Shown here one piece after another: positions 1 to 29,384 of a stretch of 64,000 bases of DNA (position 1 is the stretch's first letter; each line of letters starts with the position of its first letter). The position numbers and the translations under genes were made by a program. The notes under the pieces were generated by a model. That model was not told the origin of the DNA. It did not search any database and saw nothing but the letters and a program-made list of their open reading frames with translations. The stretch lies in assembly GCA_902789745.1 (NCBI GenBank), contig CADAPH010000004.1, forward strand, positions 314 through 64,313. Direction: 5' to 3'. This stretch comes from Oscillospiraceae bacterium (GTDB lineage Bacteria; Bacillota; Clostridia; Oscillospirales; Oscillospiraceae).

Positions 1-51
1 ATAACGGAAGTCGAAAAAGCAGAGGACTAACCTCACAATATGGGAAACAGG

Positions 52-85
52 AGATTGCAGCGCATGGCGGCTGCAATCTTTTTTT
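52..85 (+). terminator. Rho-independent terminator of a gene lying left of the window
   Basis: 10-bp stem agattgcagc/gctgcaatct (52-61/70-79) followed by a T7 run (79-85). Confidence 0.7.
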
Positions 86-146
86 GCGTCCAAAATCAAA
101 AGAACGCGCAACAAATACCGCCTTTCGGTGGGGGTATGGAGTAGAT

Positions 147-227
147 AGCAAGCATAGGGAGTGTAGCCACACTCCCGAAAAAGCACCCGTCTGTGCTTTG
201 CTTGTTGGGATAATCCCAAACCCTTAT
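147..227 (+). promoter_or_regulatory. Multi-hairpin leader-like element, copy A, upstream of mobC/relaxase
   Basis: Contains agcaagc..GGGAGTGT-agcc-ACACTCCC..AAGCAC-ccgtct-GTGCTT..gcttg-TTGGGA-taa-TCCCAA-acccttat. Near-identical flanks are found again, inverted, at 11852-11945. Confidence 0.6.
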
Positions 228-252
228 TCGGAGCGGAAAGGACGGTGAACAA

Positions 253-582
253 ATGGCAAACCGAACGCGGAATATTGTGCTGCGCGTTCCTGTGACTGCC
301 GAGGAACGGGCAATGATCGAGCGTAAAATGCAGCAGATGGGAACGGGCTGTTTTTCCGTTTATGCGCGGAAAATGCTCATAGACGGATATGTGATCCGGC
401 TGGATTACAGCGACATGAAAGCAATGACCGCCGAGCTGCAAAAAATCGGCACAAACATCAATCAGATTGCAAAGCGCGTGAACGCTACGGGAACGCTCTA
501 TGCGCAGGACATTGAGGACATCAAGGGGGCGATGGCGGAGATATGGCAATTACAAAGATCCATCCTATCAAAAGCACCCTGA
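253..582 (+). CDS. mobC: MobC-family relaxosome accessory protein
   Basis: 109 aa. N-terminal 'RNIVLRVPVTAEERAMIERK' and C-terminal 'GTNINQIAKRVNATG' are typical of the bacterial mobilisation protein MobC. Overlaps the relaxase start. Confidence 0.85.
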   Translation: MANRTRNIVLRVPVTAEERAMIERKMQQMGTGCFSVYARKMLIDGYVIRLDYSDMKAMTAELQKIGTNINQIAKRVNATGTLYAQDIEDIKGAMAEIWQLQRSILSKAP

Positions 583-1877
583 AAAAAGCCATTGACTATA
601 TCGCTGATCCTGCAAAGACCGACGATAAGTTGCTGGTGTCCTCGTTCGGCTGCGCCGTGGAAACCGCAGACCTTGAGTTTGAAAAAACACGGCTGCTTGC
701 CATGCAGAAAGGCAACAATCTCGCCCACCACCTGATACAGGCATTTGAGCCGGGTGAGGTCAGCTATGCGCAAGCCCACGAGATCGGGCGGCAGCTTGCC
801 GATGAAATCCTCGGCGGCAAGTATGAGTATGTCATTGCTACTCACATCAACAAGGAGCATTGCCATAACCATATTATTTTCTGTGCCGTGGATTTTGCGG
901 AGCATAAGAAGTACATTTCCAACCGCAAAAGCTACGCGCATATCCGCCGTGTCAGCGACAGGCTATGCCGGGAAAACGGGCTGTCCGTTGTCGCGCCCGG
1001 CGCGGAGCGCGGCAAGCAGTATGCCGAATGGGACGCGCAGCGGAAAGGGACAAGCTATAAGCAAAAGCTAAAAATCGCCATCGACAGGCTCATTCCCATT
1101 TCCAAAGACCTTGACGACCTCCTGCGTCGGTTGGAAGCCGAGGGGTATGAAATCAAACGAGGAAAGTATATCTCATTCCGCGCTCCCAGTCAGGAGCGAT
1201 TTACTCGCGCAAAGACGTTGGGTGAAGCCTACACCGAGGAAGCCATAGCTGAACGCATCAAGGGCAAAGTCATTCTGAAAATGCCGAAGCCGGAACGCAG
1301 CGGCGTGTCGCTGCTGATTGACATTGAAAACTGCATCAAGGCGCAGCAATCCGCAGGCTATGAACGCTGGGCAAAAATCGAAAACCTGAAACGCGCCGCC
1401 CGCACAATGGTATTTCTCGACCAGCACGGCATTTCCCACTATACCGATTTGGAGCAGAAGATCACGGTGCTTCAGGACAGCAACGAGCAGACTGCCGCTG
1501 CGCTAAAAGCAGCAGAACGCCGCCTGTCTGATCTGGCGTTGCTGATAAAGCATACCGCCACCTACAAAGAGCTAAAGCCGCTGTATAGCGAATACAAAAA
1601 ATCCCGTGACAAGGAAAAGTATCTACGCGGACGTGAGCGCGAAATCATTCTCTTTGAAGCGTCGGCGCGGGCGCTGAAAGCAGCGGGCATCGGTGACAAG
1701 CTCCCCGACCTTGCCAAGCTGCGCGAGGAATATTCCAGACTGTCCAAAGAAAAGGATCGGTTGTACGCTGAGTACGGAAGCCTGAAAAAACGTATGCGGG
1801 AATACGATGCCGTCAAGCAGAACATCGACAGCATCCTGTCCCCCAATCGTGGGCAGGAACAGGACAAAGCATTGTAG
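543..1877 (+). CDS. Relaxase/mobilisation nuclease (MobA/VirD2-type, MOB-P-like)
   Basis: 444 aa. His-rich metal motif 'THINKEHCHNHIIF', N-terminal 'ITKIHPIK', coiled-coil C-terminus. Paired with mobC. Confidence 0.9.
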   Translation: MAITKIHPIKSTLKKAIDYIADPAKTDDKLLVSSFGCAVETADLEFEKTRLLAMQKGNNLAHHLIQAFEPGEVSYAQAHEIGRQLADEILGGKYEYVIATHINKEHCHNHIIFCAVDFAEHKKYISNRKSYAHIRRVSDRLCRENGLSVVAPGAERGKQYAEWDAQRKGTSYKQKLKIAIDRLIPISKDLDDLLRRLEAEGYEIKRGKYISFRAPSQERFTRAKTLGEAYTEEAIAERIKGKVILKMPKPERSGVSLLIDIENCIKAQQSAGYERWAKIENLKRAARTMVFLDQHGISHYTDLEQKITVLQDSNEQTAAALKAAERRLSDLALLIKHTATYKELKPLYSEYKKSRDKEKYLRGREREIILFEASARALKAAGIGDKLPDLAKLREEYSRLSKEKDRLYAEYGSLKKRMREYDAVKQNIDSILSPNRGQEQDKAL

Positions 1878-1890
1878 CTTCTCTGACATT

Positions 1891-1975
1891 CACACATTAT
1901 TTTCAAGTAATTTAATGTGTGTTCGTCGTTTCGCAGTTGACAACCGCACATTATTTCTCTATAATATAATGTGTG
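1891..1975 (+). promoter_or_regulatory. abiE promoter with two palindromic operator-like sites
   Basis: TTGACA (1937-1942), 17-nt spacer, TATAAT (1960-1965). Palindromes are CACACATTA/TAATGTGTG at 1891-1899/1913-1921 and CACATTAT/ATAATGTG at 1947-1954/1966-1973, the second bracketing the -10. Confidence 0.7.
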
Positions 1976-1998
1976 ATTGTCAAAGCGAGGTGAGAAGC

Positions 1999-2592
1999 AT
2001 GAACGCCAAGGAGAAAATCGAAGAACTGCTGGAAGCGTCGGAGGACGGCACGATCACCGCAGCGCAGGTGACGGAAGCCGGGCTGCACCGCAGCGTTTTA
2101 CAGGAGTTTGTTAAGAGCGGCGAGATGTACCGCTTTGGGCGCGGTCTGTATGTGCGTAGCAGCGCATGGGAGGACGATTTCTACCTCTTGCAGCGCAAGT
2201 ATGGGCGCGGAATCTATTCGCACGATACCGCTCTGTATCTGCTGGGCTATTCAGACCGTACCCCGGCGAAATATACGATGACCTTTCCCAAGGGCTACAA
2301 TGCCCCGTCCTTGAAGCAGGAGAACCTAATCATCAAGCGCGTTGTGCCGGAAAACTACGAGTTCGGCAGAATTGAAATTGAATCCCCATCCGGCAATCCA
2401 ATTCGTGTTTATGATTTGGAACGGACGCTGTGTGACATTCTGCGCGGCAGCGGCAGCGATGTTCAGATCGTCGGAGAAGCTATGAAACGCTATGCAGCGT
2501 CCAAAGATAAGAATATTCACAAACTGATGCAGTACGCAGACCAGCTTCGCGTAAAGCCCAAGGTGCTGCGATACATGGAGGTTTTGCTATGA
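1999..2592 (+). CDS. abiEi: Type IV toxin-antitoxin / abortive infection antitoxin AbiEi
   Basis: ATG at 1999 follows the gaggtgag RBS. 'GTITAAQVTEAGLHRSVLQEFVKSGEMYRFGRGLY' winged-helix N-terminus and 'YDLERTLCDILR' are typical of AbiEi. ATGA overlap with the next gene. Confidence 0.85.
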   Translation: MNAKEKIEELLEASEDGTITAAQVTEAGLHRSVLQEFVKSGEMYRFGRGLYVRSSAWEDDFYLLQRKYGRGIYSHDTALYLLGYSDRTPAKYTMTFPKGYNAPSLKQENLIIKRVVPENYEFGRIEIESPSGNPIRVYDLERTLCDILRGSGSDVQIVGEAMKRYAASKDKNIHKLMQYADQLRVKPKVLRYMEVLL

Positions 2593-3434
2593 TTACAAAA
2601 AATCTGATGCAACTGAAAGCCTTTATCAAGAACAAAGCGGCAGAGAAGCATATCTCGGCGCAGCTCGTCATGCAGAACTATATGTTGGAACGGCTGCTGG
2701 AACGGATCTCGCTCTCGCCCTATAAGAACAATTTCATTCTCAAAGGCGGATTCCTGATCTCCGCCATTGTGGGACTGGACACGCGGGCAACAATGGATCT
2801 GGACACAACGATCAAGGGCTTCACCCTGACGCATGAAGCAATCCGCAAAATCTTTACAGAGATTTGCGCTGTCCAGATCGCCGACGACGTGCAGTTTGAG
2901 GTTATCGGCATCTCTGACATTCGGGAAACCGACGATTACCCCGGCATACGGGTCGCGCTGAAAGCGAACTATCCGCCGATCAGCGTACCGCTGACGGTGG
3001 ATGTCACCACGGGCGACATGATAACGCCCCGTGAGGTGGAATACACATTCTCCCTGCTGTTCGATGACCGCACGATCAGTATTCTTGCCTACAACCTTGA
3101 AACGGTACTGGCGGAAAAGCTGGAAACTGTGCTGTCCCGCAACATTGCGAATACCCGTCCGAGAGATTATTACGACGTACATATCCTGTACGCGCTGCGC
3201 GGCGCGGAATGTGACAAAGCGACGCTGCGCCGGGCACTGGAACGAACGACGCAGAAACGCGGCAGCGGCACGATCCTGACAGACTACCCGGAGATTATGA
3301 AAGAGATCCGCGAAAGCGATACGCTCCGTAGACTGTGGGAGAAATACAGCCGCGAGTATGAGTACGCAAAGGACATTTCCTTTGACGATACCTGTAATAC
3401 CATTCAGACGATTATGGACGCAATCATGGCGTAA
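2589..3434 (+). CDS. abiEii: AbiEii/AbiGii-family nucleotidyltransferase toxin
   Basis: 281 aa. 'FILKGGFLISAIVGLDTRATMDLD' NTase core; the position after AbiEi and the length are typical. Confidence 0.85.
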   Translation: MITKNLMQLKAFIKNKAAEKHISAQLVMQNYMLERLLERISLSPYKNNFILKGGFLISAIVGLDTRATMDLDTTIKGFTLTHEAIRKIFTEICAVQIADDVQFEVIGISDIRETDDYPGIRVALKANYPPISVPLTVDVTTGDMITPREVEYTFSLLFDDRTISILAYNLETVLAEKLETVLSRNIANTRPRDYYDVHILYALRGAECDKATLRRALERTTQKRGSGTILTDYPEIMKEIRESDTLRRLWEKYSREYEYAKDISFDDTCNTIQTIMDAIMA

Positions 3435-3452
3435 ACGAAAGGAGGCTTCTTT

Positions 3453-3845
3453 ATGGGTTGGTTGGCAGCGCAGGGCGCGATTATGGCGATTGGGCTTTTC
3501 ATTGGGCTTGTCTGCTCGGTGATCGGACTATTCTTTGGGCATATCATTCTCTTTGACAGCATCGCTCTCGGCATCGCCGCCGGAGTATGCTGCAATCAGT
3601 TCACCGCAATTCATCCGGCGCTGTGCCTTGTGATCGGCATTGCAACATTTCTGCTGCTGTTGTGGCTGCAAAATACCAGCATCGGCTTCTGGCTCGTCGG
3701 CGGACTGCTCACGCTGATCTATGCAGCGGTGTTCGGGCTGCTGGCCTACTTCATTTCGGAGCATGATCCCATCTGGGGCTGGGTGATTTTCGGTCTGGTG
3801 TTCCTCGTGGTCGGTGCGCTGCACCTACGCGCACGGGATAGCTGA
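3453..3845 (+). CDS. Small integral membrane protein (about 4 TM helices), function unknown
   Basis: 130 aa, almost entirely hydrophobic helices. RBS aaaggagg lies 6-13 nt upstream. Starts 18 nt after the abiEii stop. Confidence 0.6.
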   Translation: MGWLAAQGAIMAIGLFIGLVCSVIGLFFGHIILFDSIALGIAAGVCCNQFTAIHPALCLVIGIATFLLLLWLQNTSIGFWLVGGLLTLIYAAVFGLLAYFISEHDPIWGWVIFGLVFLVVGALHLRARDS

Positions 3846-4028
3846 AAGCAAGCGCAAAGTCACGGCTTAGAGTGCCTGTATGCCTTGCTGAGAGCGGCTT
3901 TACAGCGTGGAGGATGCAAGGGGCGTATGTTTTCCCTGCCAGTTATGAAAAACGAGTTTGAAAGCGTGACCGGAAAATGCAAGTACAGCATAAACAAGTT
4001 GGTTCTTCTCAAAATACGGAGGGGTTTT

Positions 4029-5384
4029 ATGAAAAAACGAGCAATTCTTTTTGGAATGTTCCACTACAATAGAAGCGCTTCAATTACAGCAAACGATCTA
4101 CCAAGCACAGAAATTGATGTAAAGACATTAGAAAAGAGATTAAAGCAGTTACAGTTTGAAACCGTTTCATATATGGATCTTTGCTTGAAAGATATGGAGC
4201 AAAAGATAACTGAATTTGCAGATACAGCTCCGTGTGATTCTCTGAATGTAGTATATTTCTCTGGACATGGCGGACACAGCAAAGGCGAGAACTATTTGTA
4301 TCCTGTGGATTTTGGGAATAGCTTGGATGCAAGAATGTCTATTGAAGATAGCGCATTTAATCTCAAACGAATCCAACCGCTTTTCAAAAGAAAAGTGAAG
4401 CTCTTGATAATTGTTGATGCCTGCCGCGACAAATTAAAGCCAGATTATGCTTGTAATTATTCGGAAATGGTCGCGCCACAAGATACATACATAGCCTACG
4501 CCACGCAATTTGGAGATTGCTCTGGTTGCACTCCAGCAATAAGCTATTTTACAGAAGCGTTATGCGACAATATCTTAACTCCGAACATCTCGGTTGATCG
4601 ACTGTTTACTGATGTGCGGGCTACTCTCTATTTGAAACACGGCAGACAAATATCAAACAGCGTAAACGGGTTTATGAGTGATATTTCTTTGAACGAACAG
4701 GCCGACCACGATAAAGTGGGAAATTTGGTTTTGCAGTTTGTGGATCACTATGGCGATATGTATGTTGATAAATATGGTCCCTTTGCAGGAGATGACTTAG
4801 TGTTCATAGATGCAGCACAATATTGTGGTATCAGTGTATTAGACGCAATCTATAAATTCCAAAAACTTGATGCAGAACGATGCCACGTTACCGATAGCCT
4901 TTCAGAAAGCCACAAAAAACTAATTGCATTTTGGGGAATGTTGGGGAACGGTTTAGCGCAGGATGAGTTTTATACATGGAAATACCGAGGACGACCTATA
5001 AGATTAGGAGAAATCCCACCGTTGCCATTAGATATGCAAAAACCTATGCCGGATGCTGGAAAAGAAATTGAAGTTGATTTTAAGCTCAATATAAAGCATG
5101 ATGGGATATACATTTCAACAAATCTACCAGATAACTACCAGCTTTTTGGAAAGATAAATGGCAGGTATTCATTCAACAACATCGTTGTTAAGAGTGGAAA
5201 CGCCCAAATACCTCTTTCTGATAAAATATCCGAGGTTTACGCAGTCGATTTGTATTCAGTTGTGCCTACTATTTCGGGAGTTGATAGCTCTATCATAGGA
5301 GAAAAGGCTCGAAATCTTGTGGGGCAATATGTAAAGTTTTCCCCAATCAGCGGAAACTCCATTGAATTTCATTACAAGAAATAA
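4029..5384 (+). CDS. Caspase-fold (peptidase C14) protease with an uncharacterised C-terminal domain of about 215 aa
   Basis: His-Cys dyad in canonical order, 'VVYFSGHGGH' then 'LLIIVDACRD', with beta1 'KRAILFGMFHY'. ATG at 4029 follows ggagggg; the track start at 3885 is a TTG extension. AT-rich relative to its flanks. Confidence 0.8.
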   Translation: MKKRAILFGMFHYNRSASITANDLPSTEIDVKTLEKRLKQLQFETVSYMDLCLKDMEQKITEFADTAPCDSLNVVYFSGHGGHSKGENYLYPVDFGNSLDARMSIEDSAFNLKRIQPLFKRKVKLLIIVDACRDKLKPDYACNYSEMVAPQDTYIAYATQFGDCSGCTPAISYFTEALCDNILTPNISVDRLFTDVRATLYLKHGRQISNSVNGFMSDISLNEQADHDKVGNLVLQFVDHYGDMYVDKYGPFAGDDLVFIDAAQYCGISVLDAIYKFQKLDAERCHVTDSLSESHKKLIAFWGMLGNGLAQDEFYTWKYRGRPIRLGEIPPLPLDMQKPMPDAGKEIEVDFKLNIKHDGIYISTNLPDNYQLFGKINGRYSFNNIVVKSGNAQIPLSDKISEVYAVDLYSVVPTISGVDSSIIGEKARNLVGQYVKFSPISGNSIEFHYKK

Positions 5385-5387
5385 AAA

Positions 5388-5436
5388 CGCGGGACGCAGC
5401 AGCCATCATCGGCTGCCGCGCCCCGCGTCGTCTTTT
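5388..5436. terminator. Stem-loop between convergent genes (bidirectional terminator-like)
   Basis: cgcgggacgcagcagcc-atcatc-ggctgccgcgccccgcg (two mismatches), followed by tcgtctttt. Confidence 0.55.
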
Positions 5437-5659
5437 ACTCTGCGTCGGAAAGCGTCATGGTGAACTGCGCTTCCTCAAATGCTGCGTCGGTCATGTTGTG
5501 CAGCTTATGGATCGTCTGCTCTGCCAGCGGGCGCATATCTGCGTCCATATCCGGCAGCGCGTCGGAAATCGCCGCAATCGTTCTGCGGTGGTCGTGCTTG
5601 TGATAAATGCAGATCAGGTTTTCTTCCTCAATGGTAAACGAAACATTGTCCATGCTCAT
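5435..5659 (-). CDS. Transposon-transfer assisting family protein (small ICE-conserved protein)
   Basis: 74 aa. 'EEENLICIY' and 'AISDALPDMD..MRPLAEQTIHKL' resemble this family. ATGA-coupled to the upstream gene. Confidence 0.65.
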   Translation of the reverse strand: MSMDNVSFTIEEENLICIYHKHDHRRTIAAISDALPDMDADMRPLAEQTIHKLHNMTDAAFEEAQFTMTLSDAE

Positions 5660-6606
5660 ACCTCCAAATCATTGTCTTTCGCCTTTGCCGCTGCCTTTTT
5701 CGGTGCAGCGGTCTTTTTTGACTGTCCCTCCTTGAGCTGCGCCCGGACAGAGGGACGCTGCTTGCGCAGCGGCAGATCGCGCCGCTCGTCCTTGCTGATA
5801 AAAGCGAAAACGCCGTGTCTGTCCTTGACGGAGGAAAGATACAGCGTCTTATACGGAAGCAATGCAAATAGCCGCTCATGTTCCTTGCTGGATGCGATAC
5901 GCTCAAACCACGGCGACACTTCTACTACAAAATGCGTTCCGTTGGGGCTGTTGGGCGCTTGCAGGGATTGAAACGCCGCCGAAAGGCGCTGTGCTTCGGC
6001 AAGCACCTTTTCGTCGGAGAGCCGTCCGATATGCTCCTTGAAATTGCCGGGTTTCAGCCGTTCACGCTTCCGGCTCTCGTCGCGCAACAGATCCCGCAGC
6101 GCGTCCGGGTCATGCGGCACAGCTTCATAGCACACGAACTTTCCGTACTCCCGATCCGGCGTCGCTTCAAAGCGGTATTCCTTGGGCAGCTCCCGTGAGC
6201 CGTTTTCATAGATTAGACGGTTATTGTCTGTCCGCAAGGCGGTCTGGATTGCAAGCTTGGCTTTCGCTGCATAGTCCAGCTCATAAATGCTGCCTTTTAC
6301 CTTGCCGCTCTCCATGCCGGACAGCACCACGGCATAGGCAAGTACACGCTCCTTGGTCTGCTCATGGTAGAAACGGAACGTATTATGCTCCCGCGTTCCG
6401 CGCAGAAACACGTCCCGTTCCCGCAGACAATGCGTTCCGTTGGGGCGGGAAAACCATAGATAGACCTTATTCTCGGCATTTTTGCTCTTTGCCGCCTGTG
6501 TCAGAATCTTCTTGTCGATGTCAAAATCATTCTGAAAGGCGGCTGTGTTCTGCTGCATGATCTGTTGCAGGGATGCCAGCACATCCACATTTTCAAATTT
6601 ATTCAT
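5656..6606 (-). CDS. ICE-conserved hypothetical protein
   Basis: 316 aa, protein-like composition, sits directly after the polyvalent gene. Basic C-terminal tail with 'RPSVRAQLK'. Confidence 0.7.
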   Translation of the reverse strand: MNKFENVDVLASLQQIMQQNTAAFQNDFDIDKKILTQAAKSKNAENKVYLWFSRPNGTHCLRERDVFLRGTREHNTFRFYHEQTKERVLAYAVVLSGMESGKVKGSIYELDYAAKAKLAIQTALRTDNNRLIYENGSRELPKEYRFEATPDREYGKFVCYEAVPHDPDALRDLLRDESRKRERLKPGNFKEHIGRLSDEKVLAEAQRLSAAFQSLQAPNSPNGTHFVVEVSPWFERIASSKEHERLFALLPYKTLYLSSVKDRHGVFAFISKDERRDLPLRKQRPSVRAQLKEGQSKKTAAPKKAAAKAKDNDLEV

Positions 6607-6609
6607 AGG

Positions 6610-9600
6610 TCACTCCATTTCCAAAGCCTGCCGGATGCTCCGCTTGGTTTCCTGTTCCTTTTCCCGCTGCTGCGGCTTGCCGGACTGCACACGATCTGCT
6701 TTGAGCTGTGCGCGGATAGACGGCTTTTTGCCGTCCGGGTCGCGCTGCGGCGTTCTGCTGTCCTCGGCCTTGACCGCTGCGGCAAGCGCAGAGAGCGAAA
6801 TCACCTCGCCGCGCTTTGCCTTTTCTTCCAGCTCGTCCACGGACGGGGTGTTGTTGATCTGCCCGTCAATCATATTGTAGTTCTGCTCGGTGGACAGCTC
6901 CGCCGTGCGCATATAGTTTTCCTGTTCCCGCTGCTCGGCGGCAATGGCAAAGGCCTGTGTGCCGTTGCCCATGATAAGGTACTTGCCGTCATCGGTGCTG
7001 TGGTGATACCCATAGCCTGCGGCTTCCATCTGCTCACGGTTCATATCGGCAACATGGAAGCTGCCGCGCGGCGTTGAAATGCGCTCTCCGGTCAGGTGGG
7101 CGTCAGGGGCAGCGGATTCCTGCTGCTGGGCGCTGCGCTGCACGTCAATGGGCTTTTCCCCGGAGATAGGCTGAATACAGGAAATGTACCCTGCGGCGTA
7201 GTATGCGTTTTTATTAAGCTGGCGCTGCCATGCGCCGACGCTGGGTGCCCAGCGGAAGCCGTTTGCTTTCAGCTCGTCCCGCGCCGCTTCATCCGGCTTG
7301 CCGTCAAAGAACACTTGCAGACGGTTATCCGCTTTGTTTGCTTCCACGCGCCCGCCGTCAAATTCCCATCCGGCAAAATTGGTGTCCTCATGCTGCCGCA
7401 CCTGTTCAATGCGCCCACGGATGCGGCGAATCTCGGCATTGTTGTTGGAGAGCATATAGGCGGGATACGGCCGGCTCTTATCCAGATGCCAGGACTGCGC
7501 CATTTCCTGCTGCAATTTGGTGATCTGCTCCGGCGTCAGACTGGGGCAGCCCTCCAAAGTCTTATTCTTACGGAAATAGGCGTTGACGGCTTTCATGGTT
7601 TCCTGCGCCGATTCCAGCTTGACGAGCTTGGCTTCCAGCTTTGCCGCTGCCTGCGGGTCATCCATGCTGATACCGCCCATGCCTGTGCTGCGGATCTTGT
7701 CCAAAATCCCCTGAACATCCTGCCATTCCTGCATATTGCGGTCACGGGCGGCGTTTTGCTTCTCTTTCTTGCGAACGGGGAAATTGCTGCCGCCTGCAAC
7801 GAGGATCGAGGGAACACGGGCTTCAATGGCATAGTGGTCGTTCAGATTTTCCGCCAGCTTGCGGGCGTAGGTGTCCAGCAGCGCGTCAATTTTCTCATGG
7901 TACATGGGATCGACGCGCTCTTTCTGCCGCTGCGCAATCGCCGCTGCCTGATCTACCATCTGCCGATATTCGGCGGTGGCGCTGCCTGCGGCGTAGTCGC
8001 GGTAGCTGTTTGCATCGTTGGCACGGCGGGCAGCGCCCTCATTGATGGTGTAATACCTGACGGCGGTTTGCTCCGGCGCGGTATCTGCGGGCGGCGCTTT
8101 CTCCGGCTGCTCCTGTACGTCGGCGGGCTGCTCCTGCGGCTCGTAGCCATTGGCGGCATATTCCTCCACGGTCATGCCTGCGGCTTCGGCTTCCTGTGCG
8201 ATCTCACTTTCTACATGGGCTTTGTAGTCCTGAAGCTCTTTATCAAAATCGGAAAGCTGCGGCGGATCGGGCAAGTGATAATCGCCAGCGTTCAGCTTTT
8301 CCCGGCAAGCGTCCACATGAGCAAGAACTGCATGAAAATATGCCGTCTGCTCCGGCGTCAGATTTTCTCCATTTTCCAGCATATCCGCAGCGGTGCGCTC
8401 CTGCTCGGAGAGGTTACAATGCAGACGCATATACGGTACAAACTCGGTGAGAAGCGTTGCGCGCTCGGCCTTGTCCTTTTCCCACGCTTCCGCGCCCTCG
8501 TTGTGCAGCACAAAGTTTTTCCAGCTCTCGTCCTTGGCGTAGTATTCGTGATAGGCTTGGATATGGTCGATCAGAGCGCCGTCCCCGTCGCCAAAGTCCT
8601 GCCGCCCCTCGTAGCTGTCACGTTCCCCGTGGAATGTGCAGTCAATGCGGAATTTGGTTTTATCGTACCAGCCGCCTGTGTAACCGGGCTTCTCACGCTC
8701 GGAACGCTTTTCCTCGTCCAGCGCCTTAAAGAGCGCGTCGGCGCGGGCAAGTGGGAGCTGTTCACCCTCTTGCAGCTTATCGCTCTCGCTCCAAAGAATC
8801 GTCACGACGGGCTGCACCGCAGGATTAAGGGAGGTTGCTTCCTTGCCGGACACTTCCTCTTGGGCATGGAACATGGCAATCTGCTCGTCGCTCGCATAGG
8901 TCAGGTCGCCAAACTCCAAATCGTTCAGCTCGCCTTGGATCAGCGCAGCCAGCGATTCATACTGTCGGCTTTCAATCAGCACATCACCCAAATATTTTTC
9001 AATGCGGAAGTCCGCCAGGTTTGCGTATGCCTGAATGGGGACTTCATCATCCGTAACGGTCGTGTGTCCAATACCAACGGCGGACAGGTCGCTGAAATCT
9101 GCGCCGGAATGAAATTCTTCGCGGCAGTAATCGTCGATCAGCTTTTTCGCAAGCTCCAATTCAGCGCGTTCCCGTGCGGCGTCGCTCAGATGCAGAGAGT
9201 AAAGGCCGGAAACAGAGGAAAAGCCGACGTTGTTGAAAACATAGTCCACATCACTTTCTTTCAGCGCTCCGGCTGCGTAGTAATTTTCCCGCGTGGGTGT
9301 CGGGCTTACGCTGCCGGATGCAATGTCGTGATTCAAGCCCGTTTCCAAGTGCGTGCAGATTTTTCCGTCCACCGCCAGCGTCGCATAGTACCAACCTATG
9401 TAACCGTTGCTTTGCTGATCTGCGCCGTCGTTGAACTCCACATTCAGCAGCGTGTAGGGCTTCAAGCCCTTTTCTGCGGCAATGGCATTGTCCTGAAGCT
9501 CGCGTTCTTTGAGGGCGGTATAAGCAGTTTCCTTTGCAACGCGGATGATTTCAGGGTTATACCGCACCAATGCGCTATCGACAAGCTCCTGCTGTACCTT

Positions 9601-11853
9601 TTTGGTTTTGGCTTGCCGCGTCATGTGGTTGCCTAAAAACAGAGAGCTGCCGTTATCAAAGCGAAGGGAAATATCGCTTGTGCCGCGCCATTTTCCTGTG
9701 CAGGGCGAGGTTTCAATCGTGCCGGACGTGCAGCCGAACGCCTGCGCGATCACGCCGATTTTCTCCTGCATGGAGAGCGTTTCATACCGCTTGGCAATTT
9801 CAACAGCCTGTTTCTGTAACTCTGTCAGTGGTCGTTCCACTGGCGGAGCGTCAACCTGTGCTTCCTGCTGTGCGGCCTGCTCCGGCTGTAAAAACTCCGG
9901 CACTTCGGTATAGCCGCCGCGATCCAGATAGTGCGCCGTTTCCTGCTCGCCGCGATGCAGCACAATGACATCGGACATGGAAAGGCTATGCCCGGTAAAA
10001 TCCTGCGGCCTGTCCATATTGAAGCGAACGAAAATGTCCTCCAGCGTATCCGTATCGGAGAGCGGTGCGGTATAGACCAGCTCATAATTTTCGCGGTCAA
10101 CACGCAGCCCGGCGGCCTTTACCTGTTCCAGCGGCTCAAATCGGAGATCCCGCGTTGCGTCGCCGTCTTTAAGCTGATAAATGGAAAAGGTGTTCTCCGG
10201 CACATCCTGCGCAGCAGCCTGTTCCTGCTCTGCGGTGTGCTGCGCCTGAAGCTCTGCAAAATGCCCCTCGATTTCGGAAATAAGCTCGCTGGCGGCGGTG
10301 CGGATAGTTTCAAGGGATGCTTTCAGCTCCTTAATATCGCGGCCGCTGCTCCACCCGGCGACATAGCCAAAGGAGTAGTCCGACGTGTCCAGCCCGAAAT
10401 GCTGGCACACCGTATAGGCAACGCTTTCCGCCTGCACCTCGCGGGTGCTGCGGTCGGGGCGCTCCGCCTGCTCCGGCGCGTTCAGGTCAATATCGTGCAG
10501 CTTGGCATGGGCAATCTCGTGGATCGCCGTCTTAATGGTTTGCAGCTCGCTCATGCCGTCGTCAATGGCAATGCGCTTTTCTGCAAGGTCATAATAGCCG
10601 TGTGCGCTGCCGTCGATTTTTTCAAGTGTCACGGGAACGTGAGAGGTCAGCTTCAAGGCTCGCCAAAAGTCCTCGTACTGTTCCACATTGCCCGTGAGCG
10701 CGTCCACGGCAATGTCGGGAAGCTCCTTGCCCTCGGTCTGGCTCACATCGAATACCGACACCACCTTGAACGCCGGAATCGTCACCTCCTGCTGCTCCGT
10801 GACGGGCTTACCGTCTGCGCCGATGATGGGCTGCCCGGTGTCCGGGTCAGTTTTCGCCACATCCTTTTTGATTTTATAAGGTGCGGGCGCAAGGATTTTG
10901 ATGCCCTTTTCGCCGGATTTGACATGGCGTTCAAATTCGTCACGCCACTTTCCGTAGCCTGCGATAAGGGATGCGTCCGGCTTCTGCATGACAATCAGCA
11001 GCGTATTGTTCAGGCTGTAATTGTGGAAGCGGGACATGGCTTTCAGGTAATCCCGATACCTCTCACTTTCAAAAACCTCCTGTACGCCCTGTTCCAAATG
11101 CTCGGTGATCTCCTTGATTCTGCCCTGTGTGTCGGTGGCGTTCAGCACCAGCGGACGCACGGGGATTGGCTCGACAGGCAGCGCCGCGCCCTGCGGCAGC
11201 TCGTCCATATCCCGCTGGGGGCTGGGCTGCGCAGTCAGACGATATTCCTGCGGCACTTGGTTGGCTTTGTACCACTCCGCATAATCGTTGCCGTTATTGT
11301 AGACATAGCCATAATCGGTAAAAATGCCGCGATCCTCTTTAACCGCTTCGCGCCCATAGCTCTTGTAATCAAAGAACCTCTTGGCGGCATCCGGCAATTC
11401 CAGTTCGTCCAGATCGTCAATGAGGTAATGCCCGTAATCGTCGGAATTGTGTACGGTGGGATAAAGCCAGTAGCAGTCCAGATTGTGCGTCAGGTTGATT
11501 AAGTCCGCCGCGCTTGCCGCATGGTCGCCATACTGTGCGGCAGCGGCAAACTTGTCGCGTTCCTCGTTGCTGCGCTGGGTGAGCAGCGCGGCAAGATAGT
11601 TCAAATCGTCCAGACTTTCGCCGGGCTTCAAAGCTTCGCTCCACCCGTCCAGAGAGGAATGAAAGGCAGATACCTGATACTGTTCCGTGTCGCTCCCGTC
11701 TACGCCCAGCCGTTCAAAAACGGCTTTCATCGTTTCGGCGTCGGTGGGCAGCGATACCCATTCCGCAACAGGCGTTTCCTCGGTATGCCGTGCGGTGTTG
11801 ATAAGATATACTTCCAAAAGGTGTTCGTCCACGTCTGCGCTCCTTTCTGACAT
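6610..11853 (-). CDS. Large polyvalent protein: ArdA antirestriction + ArdC-like ssDNA-binding + zincin peptidase + YodL-like + DUF3560-like modules
   Basis: N-terminal ArdA-like 'EVYLINTARHTEE..AEWVSLP'. ArdC-N 'FHNYSLNNTLLIVMQKPDASLIAGYGKW'. Zincin 'HEIAHAKLHD'. YodL-like 'FSIYQLKD..FTGHSLSMSDVIVL'. DUF3560-like 'RLQVFFDGKPDEAARDELKANGFRWAPSVGAWQRQL'. The true start may be GTG at 11832, after the gaaaggag RBS. Confidence 0.9.
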   Translation of the reverse strand: MSERSADVDEHLLEVYLINTARHTEETPVAEWVSLPTDAETMKAVFERLGVDGSDTEQYQVSAFHSSLDGWSEALKPGESLDDLNYLAALLTQRSNEERDKFAAAAQYGDHAASAADLINLTHNLDCYWLYPTVHNSDDYGHYLIDDLDELELPDAAKRFFDYKSYGREAVKEDRGIFTDYGYVYNNGNDYAEWYKANQVPQEYRLTAQPSPQRDMDELPQGAALPVEPIPVRPLVLNATDTQGRIKEITEHLEQGVQEVFESERYRDYLKAMSRFHNYSLNNTLLIVMQKPDASLIAGYGKWRDEFERHVKSGEKGIKILAPAPYKIKKDVAKTDPDTGQPIIGADGKPVTEQQEVTIPAFKVVSVFDVSQTEGKELPDIAVDALTGNVEQYEDFWRALKLTSHVPVTLEKIDGSAHGYYDLAEKRIAIDDGMSELQTIKTAIHEIAHAKLHDIDLNAPEQAERPDRSTREVQAESVAYTVCQHFGLDTSDYSFGYVAGWSSGRDIKELKASLETIRTAASELISEIEGHFAELQAQHTAEQEQAAAQDVPENTFSIYQLKDGDATRDLRFEPLEQVKAAGLRVDRENYELVYTAPLSDTDTLEDIFVRFNMDRPQDFTGHSLSMSDVIVLHRGEQETAHYLDRGGYTEVPEFLQPEQAAQQEAQVDAPPVERPLTELQKQAVEIAKRYETLSMQEKIGVIAQAFGCTSGTIETSPCTGKWRGTSDISLRFDNGSSLFLGNHMTRQAKTKKVQQELVDSALVRYNPEIIRVAKETAYTALKERELQDNAIAAEKGLKPYTLLNVEFNDGADQQSNGYIGWYYATLAVDGKICTHLETGLNHDIASGSVSPTPTRENYYAAGALKESDVDYVFNNVGFSSVSGLYSLHLSDAARERAELELAKKLIDDYCREEFHSGADFSDLSAVGIGHTTVTDDEVPIQAYANLADFRIEKYLGDVLIESRQYESLAALIQGELNDLEFGDLTYASDEQIAMFHAQEEVSGKEATSLNPAVQPVVTILWSESDKLQEGEQLPLARADALFKALDEEKRSEREKPGYTGGWYDKTKFRIDCTFHGERDSYEGRQDFGDGDGALIDHIQAYHEYYAKDESWKNFVLHNEGAEAWEKDKAERATLLTEFVPYMRLHCNLSEQERTAADMLENGENLTPEQTAYFHAVLAHVDACREKLNAGDYHLPDPPQLSDFDKELQDYKAHVESEIAQEAEAAGMTVEEYAANGYEPQEQPADVQEQPEKAPPADTAPEQTAVRYYTINEGAARRANDANSYRDYAAGSATAEYRQMVDQAAAIAQRQKERVDPMYHEKIDALLDTYARKLAENLNDHYAIEARVPSILVAGGSNFPVRKKEKQNAARDRNMQEWQDVQGILDKIRSTGMGGISMDDPQAAAKLEAKLVKLESAQETMKAVNAYFRKNKTLEGCPSLTPEQITKLQQEMAQSWHLDKSRPYPAYMLSNNNAEIRRIRGRIEQVRQHEDTNFAGWEFDGGRVEANKADNRLQVFFDGKPDEAARDELKANGFRWAPSVGAWQRQLNKNAYYAAGYISCIQPISGEKPIDVQRSAQQQESAAPDAHLTGERISTPRGSFHVADMNREQMEAAGYGYHHSTDDGKYLIMGNGTQAFAIAAEQREQENYMRTAELSTEQNYNMIDGQINNTPSVDELEEKAKRGEVISLSALAAAVKAEDSRTPQRDPDGKKPSIRAQLKADRVQSGKPQQREKEQETKRSIRQALEME

Positions 11854-11945
11854 AAGGGTTTGGGACTATCCCAACAAGCAATCGCCGCCCGGTCTGTGCC
11901 GGACGGCGATTTTCGGGAGTTGTAGCCACACTCCCTATGCTTGCT
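11852..11945 (-). promoter_or_regulatory. Multi-hairpin leader-like element, copy B, upstream of the polyvalent-protein operon
   Basis: The reverse complement reads agcaagcatagGGGAGTGTggctACAACTCCCgaaaATCGCCGTCCGGcacagaCCGGGCGGCGATtgcttgTTGGGAtagTCCCAAacccttat. Flanks match copy A, but the middle hairpin is a different sequence that still pairs. Confidence 0.6.
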
Positions 11946-12086
11946 GCGTTACTGAATCGTTCTTTTATCTCCGTAAAATGCGTTCGGTCACGCTTTCAAA
12001 GCCACTTTTCGCATTTTCCATAGGAATACCCCGCATACTCCAAAAGCGTGTCTGGAAAACCGCTTGCCGCAAGGCTTTTGAAGCCC

Positions 12087-12455
12087 CTAAACCGTGACAC
12101 ACCGCGCCTTTGTCCGCTGGCGGCGCTTGCGCTCGGCTGCATTGCGCCGGGCAGCATAGGGCGCACAGCGGTCACAGTATTTTGCGCGGTTGCTGCGGGC
12201 GGGAAAGGGCTTACCGCACAGCTCGCATTTCTTGCGGGTGTCCGCCGTGGCTGCAAGATCCGCGCATAGCTCCCGGTCTGCGGGCAGCACCGCTTCCCGG
12301 AAGTATCGGCAGAGCAGCGAATAGCTGATGGCCTGCACACAGACGCACGGTTCGCCATCGTCCAGCAGCAGACAGCACCCGCGCACATTGTTAGCGCAAT
12401 GGCAGCGGGTCAGCTTTTTCACTCTGCGATGCTGCGCGTCATTCAGCCGGATCAT
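12087..12455 (-). CDS. Cysteine-rich VLP-type small protein (ICE-conserved)
   Basis: 122 aa. 'CHCANNVRGCCLLLDDGEPCVCVQ' and 'CELCGKPF..AKYCDRC' Cys clusters. Overlaps the topB stop. Confidence 0.65.
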   Translation of the reverse strand: MIRLNDAQHRRVKKLTRCHCANNVRGCCLLLDDGEPCVCVQAISYSLLCRYFREAVLPADRELCADLAATADTRKKCELCGKPFPARSNRAKYCDRCAPYAARRNAAERKRRQRTKARCVTV

Positions 12456-21902: not shown

Positions 21903-22466
21903 CTAACTCCTTTCCGCAAGTGTAATATCGCTTGCAATTTCATTGCCCCATGCGTCCCAGCCCGGCGTTTTCTGCCGGGCGAACAGCTCCACGCGGGGCA
22001 GATTGCCCATGAGCGCAAGAATTTTGTTCCGCGCTTCATCCGGCTTTTTACTGTGCTGCTCAATGGGACTGATGATAAACTGATGTACGCCTGCCGACTG
22101 CCGCTTGGGTTTGCCCTTGGTCGCCAGCAGACAGATTTCCGCATTGCTGCGCGTCCAGTAGCCCATGCCATAAAACCACGACGGGCTTTTCCGGTTGCGT
22201 TTGAGCCAGACGAACGCCACGGTTTTATACCGAAAGCCCCATGCGCGAATCAGATGCAGAGCTTCGGATAGCTGCGGAAAGGTCGCCCAGAGAAACAGGG
22301 CGCAGTCCTTCGCCGCCAACTCCGGCACGGGCAGGGCGCACAGCTCGTCAATGCTCATGGTGGAATAGTGATTTTCTGCCGCGCCCTGCACCTTCCTCTG
22401 CTCATAGCGCCACGGTGGGTCTGCGTAAATGATGTTGTACGTTCCGATAGGCAAGCCCTCCGTCAA
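21903..22466 (-). CDS. MT-A70-family N6-adenine DNA methyltransferase (orphan)
   Basis: 'YNIIYADPPWRYE' DPPW motif. The ORF upstream of 22466 overlaps the VirB6-like gene, so I place the start at TTG 22466 (TTGA overlap). Start is uncertain. Confidence 0.75.
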   Translation of the reverse strand: MTEGLPIGTYNIIYADPPWRYEQRKVQGAAENHYSTMSIDELCALPVPELAAKDCALFLWATFPQLSEALHLIRAWGFRYKTVAFVWLKRNRKSPSWFYGMGYWTRSNAEICLLATKGKPKRQSAGVHQFIISPIEQHSKKPDEARNKILALMGNLPRVELFARQKTPGWDAWGNEIASDITLAERS

Positions 22467-29181: not shown

Positions 29182-29384
29182 GCTGTCTCAAATGCGGTAA
29201 GGCGGATAAAGCGCCGTAGGGGCAGCTATCAGCCGCCCGGCAGAGCCGGTTTGAAGCAGCACAAAAATGTGAGGCGAATTCGTACTTACCTGCGAATTCG
29301 CCTCACATTTCTTACTTTTTGACATATAACCGCGCGGGCGGCTGATAGCCGCCCCTACGTTCATTTACAGACTTTTGAGACAGC
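29182..29384. repeat. Triple-nested palindromic element of about 200 bp (MITE/REP-like); the core acts as a bidirectional terminator
   Basis: Outer pair gctgtctcaaa/tttgagacagc (29182-29192/29374-29384). Middle pair cgtaggggcagctatcagccgcccgg / cgcgggcggctgatagccgcccctacg (29215-29240/29333-29359). Core is an 18-bp perfect stem at 29265-29282/29293-29310. Confidence 0.8.
29265..29320. terminator. Bidirectional rho-independent terminator between spoVAE and the hexokinase gene
   Basis: 18-bp perfect stem aaatgtgaggcgaattcg/cgaattcgcctcacattt, flanked by an A-run on the left and a T-rich run on the right. Confidence 0.75.

Follow-up and report, generated by a model that had tools for sequence, protein, structure and literature searches.

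The element that stands directly 5′ of two operons in this integrative and conjugative element (ICE) is the known oriT of the Tn1549 family, not a novel RNA. Both of its inverted copies are, with good confidence, DNA-level oriT-type relaxosome sites of a Tn1549-family ICE with a MOBP7 relaxase and MobC. Judged from sequence, copy A, upstream of mobC, is very probably the oriT of the ICE, and the conserved second copy—inverted, and placed before a polyvalent ArdA/ArdC gene—may be a new part of the system.

Architecture of the two elements

The features below are numbered by position in the window, the whole 64 kb stretch of DNA that was analysed; the bar in a sequence marks the nick.

147..227, + strand: copy A, very probably the complete oriT element of the ICE and an orthologue of the Tn1549 oriT found between orf30 and mobC
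147-154, + strand: 5′ box of copy A, AGCAAGCA, from the sequence
147..157, - strand: putative nic box of copy A, sense strand AGCAAGCATAG, - strand CTATGCTTG|CT, from oriTDB nic mapping; nick position predicted
157..176: P2 of copy A, GGGAGTGT (157-164), loop AGCC, ACACTCCC (169-176), an inverted repeat adjoining nic
180..199: P3 of copy A, a short variable hairpin, AAAGCAC / GTGCTTT, from predicted folds
200..204: GCTTG of copy A, an inverted copy of the nic core and 3′ arm of the proposed stem P1
205-219: P4 palindrome of copy A, TTGGGA-TAA-TCCCAA
220-227: conserved tail of copy A, ACCCTTAT, followed by the Shine-Dalgarno sequence (SD) and the mobC ATG at 253
253..582, + strand: mobC, NikA-like / MobC relaxosome accessory protein (Pfam PF21983, PF05713)
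543..1877, + strand: relaxase gene, MobA/VirD2-type, Tn1549 MOBP7 family (Pfam PF03432; family per PMC12084326)
6610..11832, - strand: polyvalent protein gene with ArdA, ArdC-N, M78 peptidase, YodL, LPD25, and DUF4316 (Pfam)
11852..11945, - strand: copy B, the second, inverted oriT-type element, directly 5′ of the polyvalent anti-restriction gene
11945-11938, - strand: 5′ box of copy B
11935..11945, + strand: putative nic box of copy B, + strand reading CTATGCTTG|CT, from homology with copy A and Tn1549; nick predicted
11935-11915, - strand: P2 of copy B, GGGAGT-GT-ggct-AC-a-ACTCCC, with one bulged A
11911-11880, - strand: P3 of copy B, a 13-bp G+C-rich hairpin, ATCGCCGTCCGG / CCGGGCGGCGAT, with one G-T pair
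11879-11875, - strand: GCTTG of copy B
11874-11860, - strand: P4 of copy B, TTGGGA-TAG-TCCCAA
11859-11852, - strand: tail of copy B, ACCCTTAT

A covariance model built from relatives detects exactly two sites in the window, copies A and B, at 85.6 and 78.6 bits, and the two inverted copies described in the earlier note are thereby its sole matches. A dual-oriT arrangement is possible with these two intact oriT-type sequences. The blocks common to both copies are the inverted repeats I2 and I3 of the repeat search, with I3 comprising GCTTG, P4, and the tail; the longest exact stretch that they share is 18 nt. Element length is 65-110 nt. Predicted folds of both copies form a three-way junction plus P4, with z-scores of -5.8 and -6.8 under RNA parameters and -7.3 for both copies under DNA parameters (0/200 shuffles as good). 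The P3 of copy B is unrelated in sequence to that of copy A, and the folds bear out the earlier note's claim that this middle hairpin differs between the copies and still pairs. Both copies lie where that note placed them, albeit its motif line omitted the bulged A in the P2 of copy B.

In the 'A-type' Tn1549 layout of this ICE, mobC and the relaxase gene are convergent with the remaining backbone genes. Copy A lies 25 nt upstream of mobC, with the PF03432 relaxase gene next and the genes for topoisomerase III and the polyvalent protein nearby; copy B is not directly upstream of mobC and precedes the polyvalent gene instead. The start of the latter is likely GTG 11832, as had been proposed over ATG 11853: the GTG is 7 nt past AAAGGAG and homologues begin at the equivalent codon, whereas the ATG falls inside the conserved tail and lacks an SD. 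For both mobC and the polyvalent gene, the spacing between element and SD is tight and conserved at 20-35 nt—needless for an oriT, and a hint of an added role in gene expression. In predicted folds, the CCCTT of the tail can pair weakly with the AAGG of the SD.

Correspondence with the Tn1549 origin

The Tn1549 oriT was reportedly the subject of Tsvetkova, Marvaud & Lambert 2010, J Bacteriol 192:702. In oriTDB, as quoted in PMC7755788, it occupies 22239-22266 (28 bp) with a nic site of RYGCTTG|C; the same table gives nic sites CTTG|CA and TGCTTG|CCA for pS7, pRS01, and pRJ6. Coordinates were mapped independently after locating the ends of Tn1549 by comparison of two insertions. In the Tn1549 of an E. 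faecium plasmid (NZ_LR135298), the covariance model places the element in the 257-bp orf30-mobC spacer (66.9 bits) and another copy (78.9 bits) past topoisomerase III; the window copies are alignable with the Tn1549 copies over their full length.

The box and P2 map to approximately 22245-22272 of Tn1549, 6 nt off the oriTDB interval, whereas the alternative nic core beside P4 is more than 65 nt from those coordinates. On the antisense strand, ATGCTTG|C is an exact fit to RYGCTTG|C, and both copies carry CTATGCTTG|CT opposite the genes. P2 is 2 nt from the box and the two together span 28-30 nt. Read on the strand opposite the genes, the box AGCAAGCA plus P2 thus appears, by sequence and coordinates, to map onto the 28-bp minimal oriT of Tn1549. 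The strand and position of the nick, taken from a secondary table and a coordinate mapping 6 nt off, are probably as given here. An oriT or relaxosome structure upstream of mobC, one of four options raised in the earlier note, is accordingly the right description for copy A and, from Tn1549 homology, the best reading for copy B.

In the proposed build of one element, the invariant box AGCAAGCA(T/C)AG would be the nic site, the strand opposite the genes reading CT(A/G)TGCTTG|CT. P2 would supply the inverted repeat that precedes nic on the nicked strand and is the expected recognition part for the cognate relaxase. The second GCTTG would be an inverted copy of the nic core, as opposed to a required stem, while the P4 palindrome plus the AAACCCT of the tail would constitute a conserved accessory site, probably bound by MobC. 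As the working oriT, copy A would be nicked between positions 149 and 148 of the - strand; the T-strand would depart leftwards, away from mobC, such that mobC and the relaxase gene would be the last to enter the recipient. Copy B, if used, would be nicked on the + strand between 11943 and 11944, with a T-strand departing rightwards towards topoisomerase III.

Conservation, covariation, and distribution

The 22-nt pattern has matches in at least 120 genome contigs from gut Clostridia and relatives, and in a metagenome set retrieved independently at the protein level the element lies 5′ of nearly every mobC. Among 125 instances, approximately 67 precede mobC and approximately 18 precede polyvalent genes; the others include pseudogenes, and in many cases no ORF lies downstream. 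Putative oriTs both upstream of mobC and in gene-poor elements have been described (PMC12084326).

Constraint is unevenly spread over the element. Of 116 distinct copies, 114 have the 5′ nic box but only 94 the 3′ GCTTG, and the variants of the latter are uncompensated. P2 covaries strongly: 8/8 pairs in alignment A2 and 7/8 in the independent set A4 show covariation, with 75 and 117 double-change cells, respectively, versus 26 and 41 in shuffles (0/500 shuffles as high). In P4, the inner pair changes from A-T to G-C in 25 sequences, and further compensated variants are seen. P3 is absent from the commonest family variant and absent or replaced among relatives, and from these alignments it is a dispensable, hypervariable insert. 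The closing pairing P1 ('agcaagc' with 'gcttgtt'), suggested earlier to close the junction, receives no covariation support: its 5′ arm is invariant, being the nic core, and its 3′ arm is lost uncompensated in 21/116 distinct copies. Homologues thus uphold P2 and P4 but not P1. Mosaic junctions fall at the nic box (146-154), in favour of the oriT reading, and also at the 3′ margin of the element (L146 versus L152); given the latter, ordinary homologous recombination within a conserved block could explain the mosaics.

A possible second origin or control site

The arrangement of copy B—inverted, convergent, and before a polyvalent gene—recurs in many relatives and in Tn1549 itself. To our knowledge, the second copy of Tn1549 is absent from the published description of its oriT. 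All second copies examined stand before a polyvalent ArdA/ArdC/LPD gene, copy B retains an intact full nic box and P2 in all cases seen, and P2 identity between copies A and B is 0.88 within an ICE versus 0.65 between ICEs. The minimal oriT carried by copy B is predicted to have the specificity of copy A. Binding of the same MobC/relaxase complex at copy B is, on this pattern, somewhat favoured. Copy B could be a second working oriT, a relaxosome-binding control site, or both.

Use of copy B as a transfer origin is a possibility that we consider rather unlikely, and the same doubt attaches to the wider proposal of a working second origin, shared throughout the Tn1549 family and by Tn1549 itself, at which the relaxase would nick the opposite strand to that at copy A. 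If there were two origins, the excised ICE could send out one or the other of its strands; alternatively, leading-strand synthesis that proceeds outwards from both nicks could copy the two strands, without a single-strand origin. A second relaxosome site at the polyvalent gene would also couple production or loading of the protein to DNA processing. A second inverted nick site on one circle could interfere with transfer from the first.

Alternatively, copy B may be a relaxosome-binding operator and no origin at all, linking expression of the polyvalent gene with expression of mobC and the relaxase gene: bound MobC/relaxase would halt or modulate transcription or translation entering the gene. 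This is a tentative reading, a little better placed than the second origin. Both copies share one orientation relative to their gene and lie within 20-35 nt of the SD, the P2 type is common to the two copies of an ICE, and the confinement of the examined second copies to polyvalent genes is as an operator would predict. In Tn1549, copy B begins 10 nt past the topoisomerase stop codon, and read-through transcripts must therefore cross it. Autoregulation by relaxosome proteins at oriT, established for RSF1010/R1162 and RP4, provides a precedent. It has been proposed that donors make polyvalent proteins and pass them on together with the DNA (PMC5512222), which would call for co-expression with the relaxosome. 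However, an intact nic box and P2 seem beyond the needs of a mere binding site, orphan copies exist without a downstream gene, and operator function is compatible with the oriT-type explanation as opposed to exclusive of it. The earlier suggestion that the element co-controls both operons survives only as this DNA-level idea, with the relaxosome at both sites; its RNA-leader form is unsupported, as set out below.

Unlikely readings: RNA leader, single-strand promoter, and inversion

A cis-regulatory RNA leader of riboswitch or attenuator type, in the 5′ untranslated region of both operons, is a highly improbable reading. The element's sense orientation, immediately ahead of the SD in each operon, its stable predicted folds, the replacement of P3 with pairing kept, and the possible weak CCCTT/AAGG pairing with the SD would all suit such a leader. 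Rfam 15, however, contains no match for either copy at the gathering score, with chance-level hits only at E up to 10 and none for copy A even at E = 10. Nor is there a sense-strand bias: G-U pairs number 116 on the sense strand versus 106 on the antisense strand, and the latter is no less stable when folded, being the stabler in 34/63 cases under RNA parameters (the sense strand in 27/63) and, as the nicked strand, in 51/63 under DNA parameters. The most conserved block is, by mapping, an experimentally defined DNA nick site (the oriTDB Tn1549 nic), and an expression platform such as a terminator is lacking. The argument of the earlier note, that structure kept while sequence is replaced denotes a folded RNA, fails on this absence of strand bias, on the lack of P3 in the commonest variant, on P1 without covariation, and on the many copies with no downstream gene, which show that the element does not always lie in a 5′ untranslated region.

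Slightly less probable still is a single-strand DNA promoter or origin (Frpo/ssi/sso-like) for early anti-restriction expression in the recipient. The element folds well as ssDNA and is located before an anti-restriction gene, and promoters of this kind are known from leading regions (PMC11541004). The polarity is wrong, however: with the predicted antisense nick, transfer from copy A would bring in copy B and the polyvalent gene as coding strand, not template, the same holds from copy B towards copy A, and the gene adjoining each origin would enter last, not first. Furthermore, P2 and P3 vary so freely that no conserved -35/-10 boxes can be rebuilt in a stem, and a promoter scan returned nothing at copy A or copy B; the single-strand promoter suggested earlier thus fails on both counts. 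At 65-110 nt, the element is also far shorter than Frpo hairpins, which span approximately 300 nt.

Least probable of all is inversion of the 11.6-kb segment between the copies, also suggested earlier, for although inverted repeats flank two convergent operons and relaxases, TrwC among them, can recombine a pair of oriTs (PMC3264647), the longest exact common stretch is only 18 nt, Pfam identifies no adjacent invertase gene, all relatives seen keep mobC and the polyvalent gene in the same convergent order, and no opposite-strand joints occur in the contigs of the four DNA runs holding the region, a level at which rare forms can be missed.

Comparison with known systems

The oriT-type reading places the ICE closest to Tn1549, with which it shares the order of orf30-like HTH gene, terminator, AGCAAGCA box, P2, P3, GCTTG, P4, mobC, and MOBP7 relaxase gene, as well as a P2 of the same GGGAGTG type. 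The two differ in P3, in P4 (GGGA/TCCC in this ICE, GGGG/CCCC in Tn1549), and in the tail (ACCCTTAT in this ICE, ACCCCTGA in Tn1549).

The oriTs of the pC221/pRJ6, pS7, and pRS01 types have in common with this element the nic core GCTTG|C (nic TGCTTG|CCA or CTTG|CA). In pC221, an inverted repeat lies 5′ of nic and the relaxosome depends on a MobC-type accessory protein, both features having counterparts here; the MobC binding sites of pC221 are mapped, whereas P4 is the putative MobC site of this ICE. Unlike the ICE, these are small plasmids with a single oriT, and their flanking repeats are unrelated. In R64, the ribbon-helix-helix accessory protein NikA acts with the MOBP relaxase NikB at an oriT of inverted repeats near the nick. 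The likeness lies in a NikA-like accessory protein (the MobC of this ICE matches PF21983) together with a MOBP relaxase; the R64 nic consensus is, however, of the YATCCTG|Y type, and the two show no similarity in sequence.

For the dual arrangement, the nearest parallel is ICEclc, which has two oriTs, both shown to work (PMC5812530, a review; Miyazaki & van der Meer 2011). Both ICEs possess two origin-type regions and raise the same question of one excised circle with two nick sites. ICEclc belongs to an unrelated ICE family of the Proteobacteria with an unrelated relaxase, and its origins are both proven, whereas the second is predicted in this ICE; and in this ICE the second copy is tied to a polyvalent anti-restriction gene.

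The two copies and their setting

The genes from 253 to 14530 are the conjugation module of a Tn1549-family integrative conjugative element (ICE) with a MOBP7 relaxase (PMC12084326). A hairpin-rich element lies before mobC (copy A), and an inverted copy (copy B) lies before a large anti-restriction gene encoding a polyvalent protein.

Features of the conjugation module and the two copies of the element (window coordinates)
147–227, + strand: copy A, aligned block by block with copy B
253–582, + strand: MobC/NikA-like protein
543–1877, + strand: MobA/VirD2-type relaxase
1807–3434, + strand: AbiEi/AbiEii
3885–5384, + strand: caspase-like protein
6610–11853, − strand: polyvalent protein with ArdA, ArdC-N, M78 peptidase, YodL, LPD25 and DUF4316; likely start GTG 11832
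11945–11852, − strand: copy B, aligned block by block with copy A
12452–14530, − strand: topoisomerase III

The window fits the 'A-type' layout, where the remaining backbone genes face the mobC–relaxase pair convergently (PMC12084326); the samples of relatives compared here contained no ICEs of the B-type, for which two direct copies are conceivable.

The earlier note had described two inverted, structured copies, and both are confirmed by alignment, by a repeat scan of the window (inverted repeats I2 and I3), by folding, and by a covariance model built from relatives, which has exactly two matches in the 64 kb window. The predicted fold is alike in the two copies with RNA or DNA parameters (z-scores −5.8 to −7.3, with no shuffle folding as well): GCAAGC of the nic box, at the element's 5′ end, pairs with GCTTG (P1) and encloses two hairpins. 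The first, P2, is GGGAGTGT/ACACTCCC in both, except that one A bulges out in copy B; the middle hairpin, P3, is 7 bp long in copy A versus 13 bp, including one G-T pair, in copy B. There follow a separate hairpin, P4 (TTGGGA-TAR-TCCCAA), and the tail ACCCTTAT.

Start codons stand 20–25 nt beyond the end of the element: ATG 253 for mobC and GTG 11832 for the polyvalent gene. As previously proposed, the latter is most likely the true start, because AAAGGAG lies 7 nt upstream and the starts in Tn1549 and relatives occupy the same position; ATG 11853 falls within the conserved tail of copy B.

Other signals occur in the window. A perfect sigma-70 consensus promoter (TTGACA-17-TATAAT, 1937–1965, + strand) is embedded in a 47-nt imperfect inverted repeat (1881–1985) where the relaxase gene ends, before AbiEi/AbiEii, and the whole looks like an autoregulated toxin–antitoxin promoter–operator. 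The exact 16-nt repeat TTTGAAAGCGTGACCG is present at 3957–3972 (+), ~55 nt 5′ of the ATG at which the caspase-like gene likely starts, and at 11985–12000 (−), ~40 nt upstream of the copy B nic box, where it overlaps the end of a 130-aa ORF; with mismatches allowed, the similarity reaches GAAAA..G..TTTGAAAGCGTGACCG. This pair may be a common promoter or a regulator's site, perhaps serving a sigma factor that the element encodes, and is weak against chance, as 10 of 100 shuffles contain at least two matches (≤3 mismatches). Four copies of a 33-nt GC-rich repeat (42750–42919), probably an 11-residue protein repeat, and a 25-nt inverted repeat (29215–29359; 96% complementary, arms 95 nt apart) are unrelated to the element.

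Copy A and the origin of transfer of Tn1549

Judged by homology, copy A is the transfer origin (oriT) of a Tn1549-family ICE, a known kind of feature, and among the options raised previously an oriT or relaxosome-binding structure was the right answer. Tn1549, with its vanB operon, was found on the E. faecium plasmid NZ_LR135298 by tblastn with a MobC relative as query, and its ends were set from the comparison of two independent insertions (33,829 bp). Its 257-bp orf30–mobC spacer reads AGCAAGCA-TA-GGGAGTG-tagc-CACTCCC ... CCGTTTT-GCTTG-TTGGGGAAATCCCCAA-ACCCCTGA, with P4 differing from that of the window by a compensated change (GGGG/CCCC versus GGGA/TCCC).

The oriTDB entry for Tn1549, as tabulated in PMC7755788, places a 28-bp oriT at 22239–22266 with nic RYGCTTG|C, and the same source gives kindred nic sites in pRJ6 (TGCTTG|CCA) and in pS7 and pRS01 (CTTG|CA). 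The box and P2 of Tn1549 map to ~22245–22272, and the 6-nt offset from the entry could easily come from a few indels or another definition of the ends; the alternative GCTTG beside P4 lies more than 65 nt from the oriTDB position. The box, when read on the opposite strand to mobC, is CTATGCTTG|CT, which matches RYGCTTG|C exactly, and P2 (18–20 nt) together with TATGCTTGCT spans 28–30 nt. A sense-strand nick 3′ of P4, at ACCCCTG|A (similar to YATCCTG|Y), is disfavoured by the oriTDB nic, by the coordinate mapping, and by the dispensability of the sense-strand GCTTG. A full-text literature search with the P4 sequence returned solely unrelated coronavirus primer papers.

The Tn1549 relaxase has been described as of the MOBP type and cis-acting. 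Tsvetkova et al. (2010) reportedly found a 250-bp orf29–orf30 fragment of Tn1549 to be mobilisable, with a minimal 28-bp oriT said to comprise an inverted repeat plus core, and a 130-bp fragment that was reportedly far more effective.

The conserved second copy

Tn1549 carries copy B too: it starts 10 nt past the topoisomerase III stop codon, with box intact and P2 perfect, and lies 30 nt ahead of the GTG start of the ArdA/ArdC/YodL polyvalent gene. Convergent A/B pairs spaced 5.4–6.4 kb apart occur at three loci of relatives (L013, L023 and L097) and in four genomes, whose pairs were assembled from adjacent 8-kb blocks; a convergent second copy also lies 5.9–9.7 kb away in 12 of the 30 MobC-anchored metagenome loci whose downstream DNA extends for at least 7 kb. 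The A–B distance in the window, 11.6 kb, exceeds the reach of the MobC-anchored loci. A polyvalent ArdA, ArdC-N or LPD gene follows the second copy in all six metagenome cases scanned, in Tn1549 and in the window. Identity of P2 between A and B is 0.88 within an ICE versus 0.65 between ICEs; P3 and the flanks differ. Since the P2 type is common to both copies, the same element-encoded proteins should recognise both.

Two readings of copy B remain, and they are compatible. It may be a relaxosome-bound control site coupling the mob operon and the polyvalent gene, for which its conserved orientation and the closeness of the Shine–Dalgarno sequence speak—an origin requires neither—and which is attractive because polyvalent proteins are proposed to be products of the donor that travel with the DNA (PMC5512222). 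It may also be a second functional origin.

DNA element or RNA leader

Several tests point to an element that acts as DNA, not RNA. P2, the repeat adjoining nic, is a truly covarying hairpin: covariation is seen at 8 of 8 pairs in the alignment of the pattern matches listed and at 7 of 8 in an independent MobC-derived set, with 75 and 117 double-change cells versus 26 and 41 in shuffles (0 of 500 as high). A hairpin or palindrome is therefore under selection, although this does not indicate in which strand. P4 has compensated changes as well, from A-T to G-C in 25 sequences and, at its outer pair, from T-A to C-G at two loci (L174 and L180). P1 shows no covariation in the same alignments; its 5′ arm, GCAAGCA, is kept in 114 of 116 distinct copies, and its 3′ arm, GCTTG, in 94 of 116, with deviations that are never compensated. 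The invariant part is thus the nic core and 'P1' an inverted copy of it, so that the junction which the two ends had been proposed to close is not upheld.

G-U pairs number 116 in the sense and 106 in the antisense strand, and an RNA-type strand bias is absent; the antisense (nicked) strand is the more stable with DNA parameters in 51 of 63, both counts coming from related, non-independent sequences. Rfam gives nothing at the gathering score across the whole window and nothing meaningful at E up to 10 for the two copies. Of 125 instances among the matches listed, ~67 precede mobC and ~18 polyvalent genes; the rest include some pseudogenes and many with no downstream ORF. The folded RNA or cis-regulatory leader of the earlier note is disfavoured by the lack of an Rfam match and of strand bias, by the many copies without a gene, and by the dispensability of P3.

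The sequence runs that hold the window consist of DNA-like contigs. RNA-seq contigs from isolates with an L013-type ICE break at 595–627 while others cross the element; because a 33-nt repeat unitig is common to copies A and B, these breaks are an assembly artefact, not transcript starts or ends. In RNA-seq run X32, the contig holding the HTH gene just upstream of copy A (L013:243–497) has a depth of ~460, against ~26 for the mobC–relaxase contig. A promoter scan found no sigma-70 promoter in the element; one candidate (TTGTTG-17-TATnnn) was rejected, its −10-like part being unconserved in GGAAAGGG-type relatives (tails ACCCTCAAAG and ACCCTCGGAA).

Architecture and variation across the family

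Genome contigs matching the pattern TTGTTGGGATANTCCCAAACCC, from gut Clostridia and relatives, number at least 120. Among the matches listed, the order is constant: (A/G/T)GCAAGCA, 2–3 nt, P2, an optional P3, usually GCTTG, P4 and AAACCCT. P2 occurs in many mutually compensated versions (among them GGGAGTGT/ACACTCCC, GCAAACG/CGTTTGC, GCAAGCG/CGCTTGC, CCGGTG/CACCGG, GGAAAGGG/CCTTTCC and GGGATTGT/ACAATCCC). P3 is highly variable, its position holding several hairpins at some loci, and it is absent from the commonest variant (23 loci among the matches listed, for example L002). Of the compensatory hairpin swap claimed earlier, the pairing of P3 in both copies stands; its reading as functional constraint does not, since a commonest variant without P3 makes the 'swap' the turnover of a dispensable insert.

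Tandem nic boxes with different P2 types (GCAAATG and GGAAAGGG), ahead of just one P4 and without a downstream gene, occur at L004:4800–4907, L015:883–991 and L110:502–586, together with the sequence just upstream of each; these composites look like orphan oriTs addressable by two relaxase specificities. A sub-family starting GGCAAGCA (L024, L059, L061, L068, L076, L098, L100 and L112; also L053, L054 and L066) has two or three hairpins ahead of GGCTTG-P4 and a conserved non-coding ttatgatcgcacaagtgcgagctgcgcg downstream, with no ORF nearby; its loci are candidate gene-free mobilisable islands. Tn1549 itself has a third, weaker oriT-like element (L121:10327–10435, + strand, 34 bits) flanked by vanR-B and a small hypothetical gene, at the vanB operon edge. 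It is of the 'GGCAAGCA' orphan type, reading GGCAAGCAATG, a long hairpin GGATCAGAATATCC/GGATATTCTGATCC unlike those of the two main Tn1549 copies, and GCTTG-TTGGGGACACCCCAA, and may be a remnant of a vanB-importing unit or a mobilisation handle for another relaxase. At L202:10337–10434 (−), an inverted element directly follows the mobC stop codon, with no relaxase gene after it; this mobC has no recognisable element upstream, a layout that departs from the family rule.

Polarity of transfer

Copy A would be nicked on the − strand, between 149 and 148, and the T-strand (the nicked strand leaving the donor) would exit leftwards, crossing first the terminator at ~49–84 and then the upstream gene's 3′ end; the final residues of that gene, ITEVEKAED, match the Xre-type HTH protein adjoining mobC in L070. 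Under this polarity the HTH gene (as at L013:243–497) would enter the recipient first, and mobC and the relaxase gene last, as is usual. Were copy B used, it would be nicked on the + strand between 11943 and 11944, its strand exiting rightwards via the 130-aa ORF and topoisomerase III; from either nick, the segment between the copies would be transferred last. Each transferred strand would be the coding strand for the other copy and its gene, which argues against the single-strand promoter suggested in the earlier note; the stems also contain no conserved promoter boxes.

Mosaic junctions and inversion

The left flank of the window (1–154: the end of the Xre-type HTH gene, terminator and spacer) is all but identical with the flank of the L002-type ICE, a very common type, divergence beginning directly after AGCAAGCA, and from P2 onwards the window resembles the L078/L134 type; the ICE is thus a mosaic joined at the nic box. 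Contigs of four runs equal the window from 146 rightwards and diverge to the left, and in one metagenome the same left flank continues, at 154 and 170, into two other element types. At the box, 14 pairs combine a shared left flank with different elements, versus 1, 4 and 0 at control junctions. At most this suggests exchange at the nic site by the relaxase: junctions occur at the element's 3′ edge too (L146 versus L152), so ordinary recombination within a conserved block could also explain the mosaics. L089 is collinear with the window across copy B.

Inversion of the segment between the copies, also proposed earlier, finds no support, as opposite-strand joints are absent from the contigs of four DNA runs covering the region (contigs can miss rare forms), and gene order is unchanged across relatives.

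Significance

Among the conjugative elements of gut Firmicutes, Tn1549-type ICEs belong to the commonest, and Tn1549 bears vanB vancomycin resistance. The 65–110 nt element and its covariance model (R1) provide a sequence and structure signature by which ICEs, IMEs and gene-free 'orphan oriT' islands can be annotated in gut genomes, and its identity as an oriT guards against its misclassification among riboswitch-like RNAs. Specificity looks to be determined by the variable P2 hairpin, and P2 type is useful for predicting which element mobilises which.

Copy A, as a Tn1549-family oriT, is of a known kind; the part that merits experiment is the conserved second, inverted copy. Its place before the polyvalent gene is a concrete lead to the coordination of DNA processing with anti-defence, and it also bears on how one circle handles two nick sites. 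For copy B as a second origin there is a precedent in ICEclc, described as having two oriTs that work by a mechanism still puzzling (PMC5812530); both oriTs of ICEclc are experimentally functional, whereas copy B of the ICE in the window is a predicted one.
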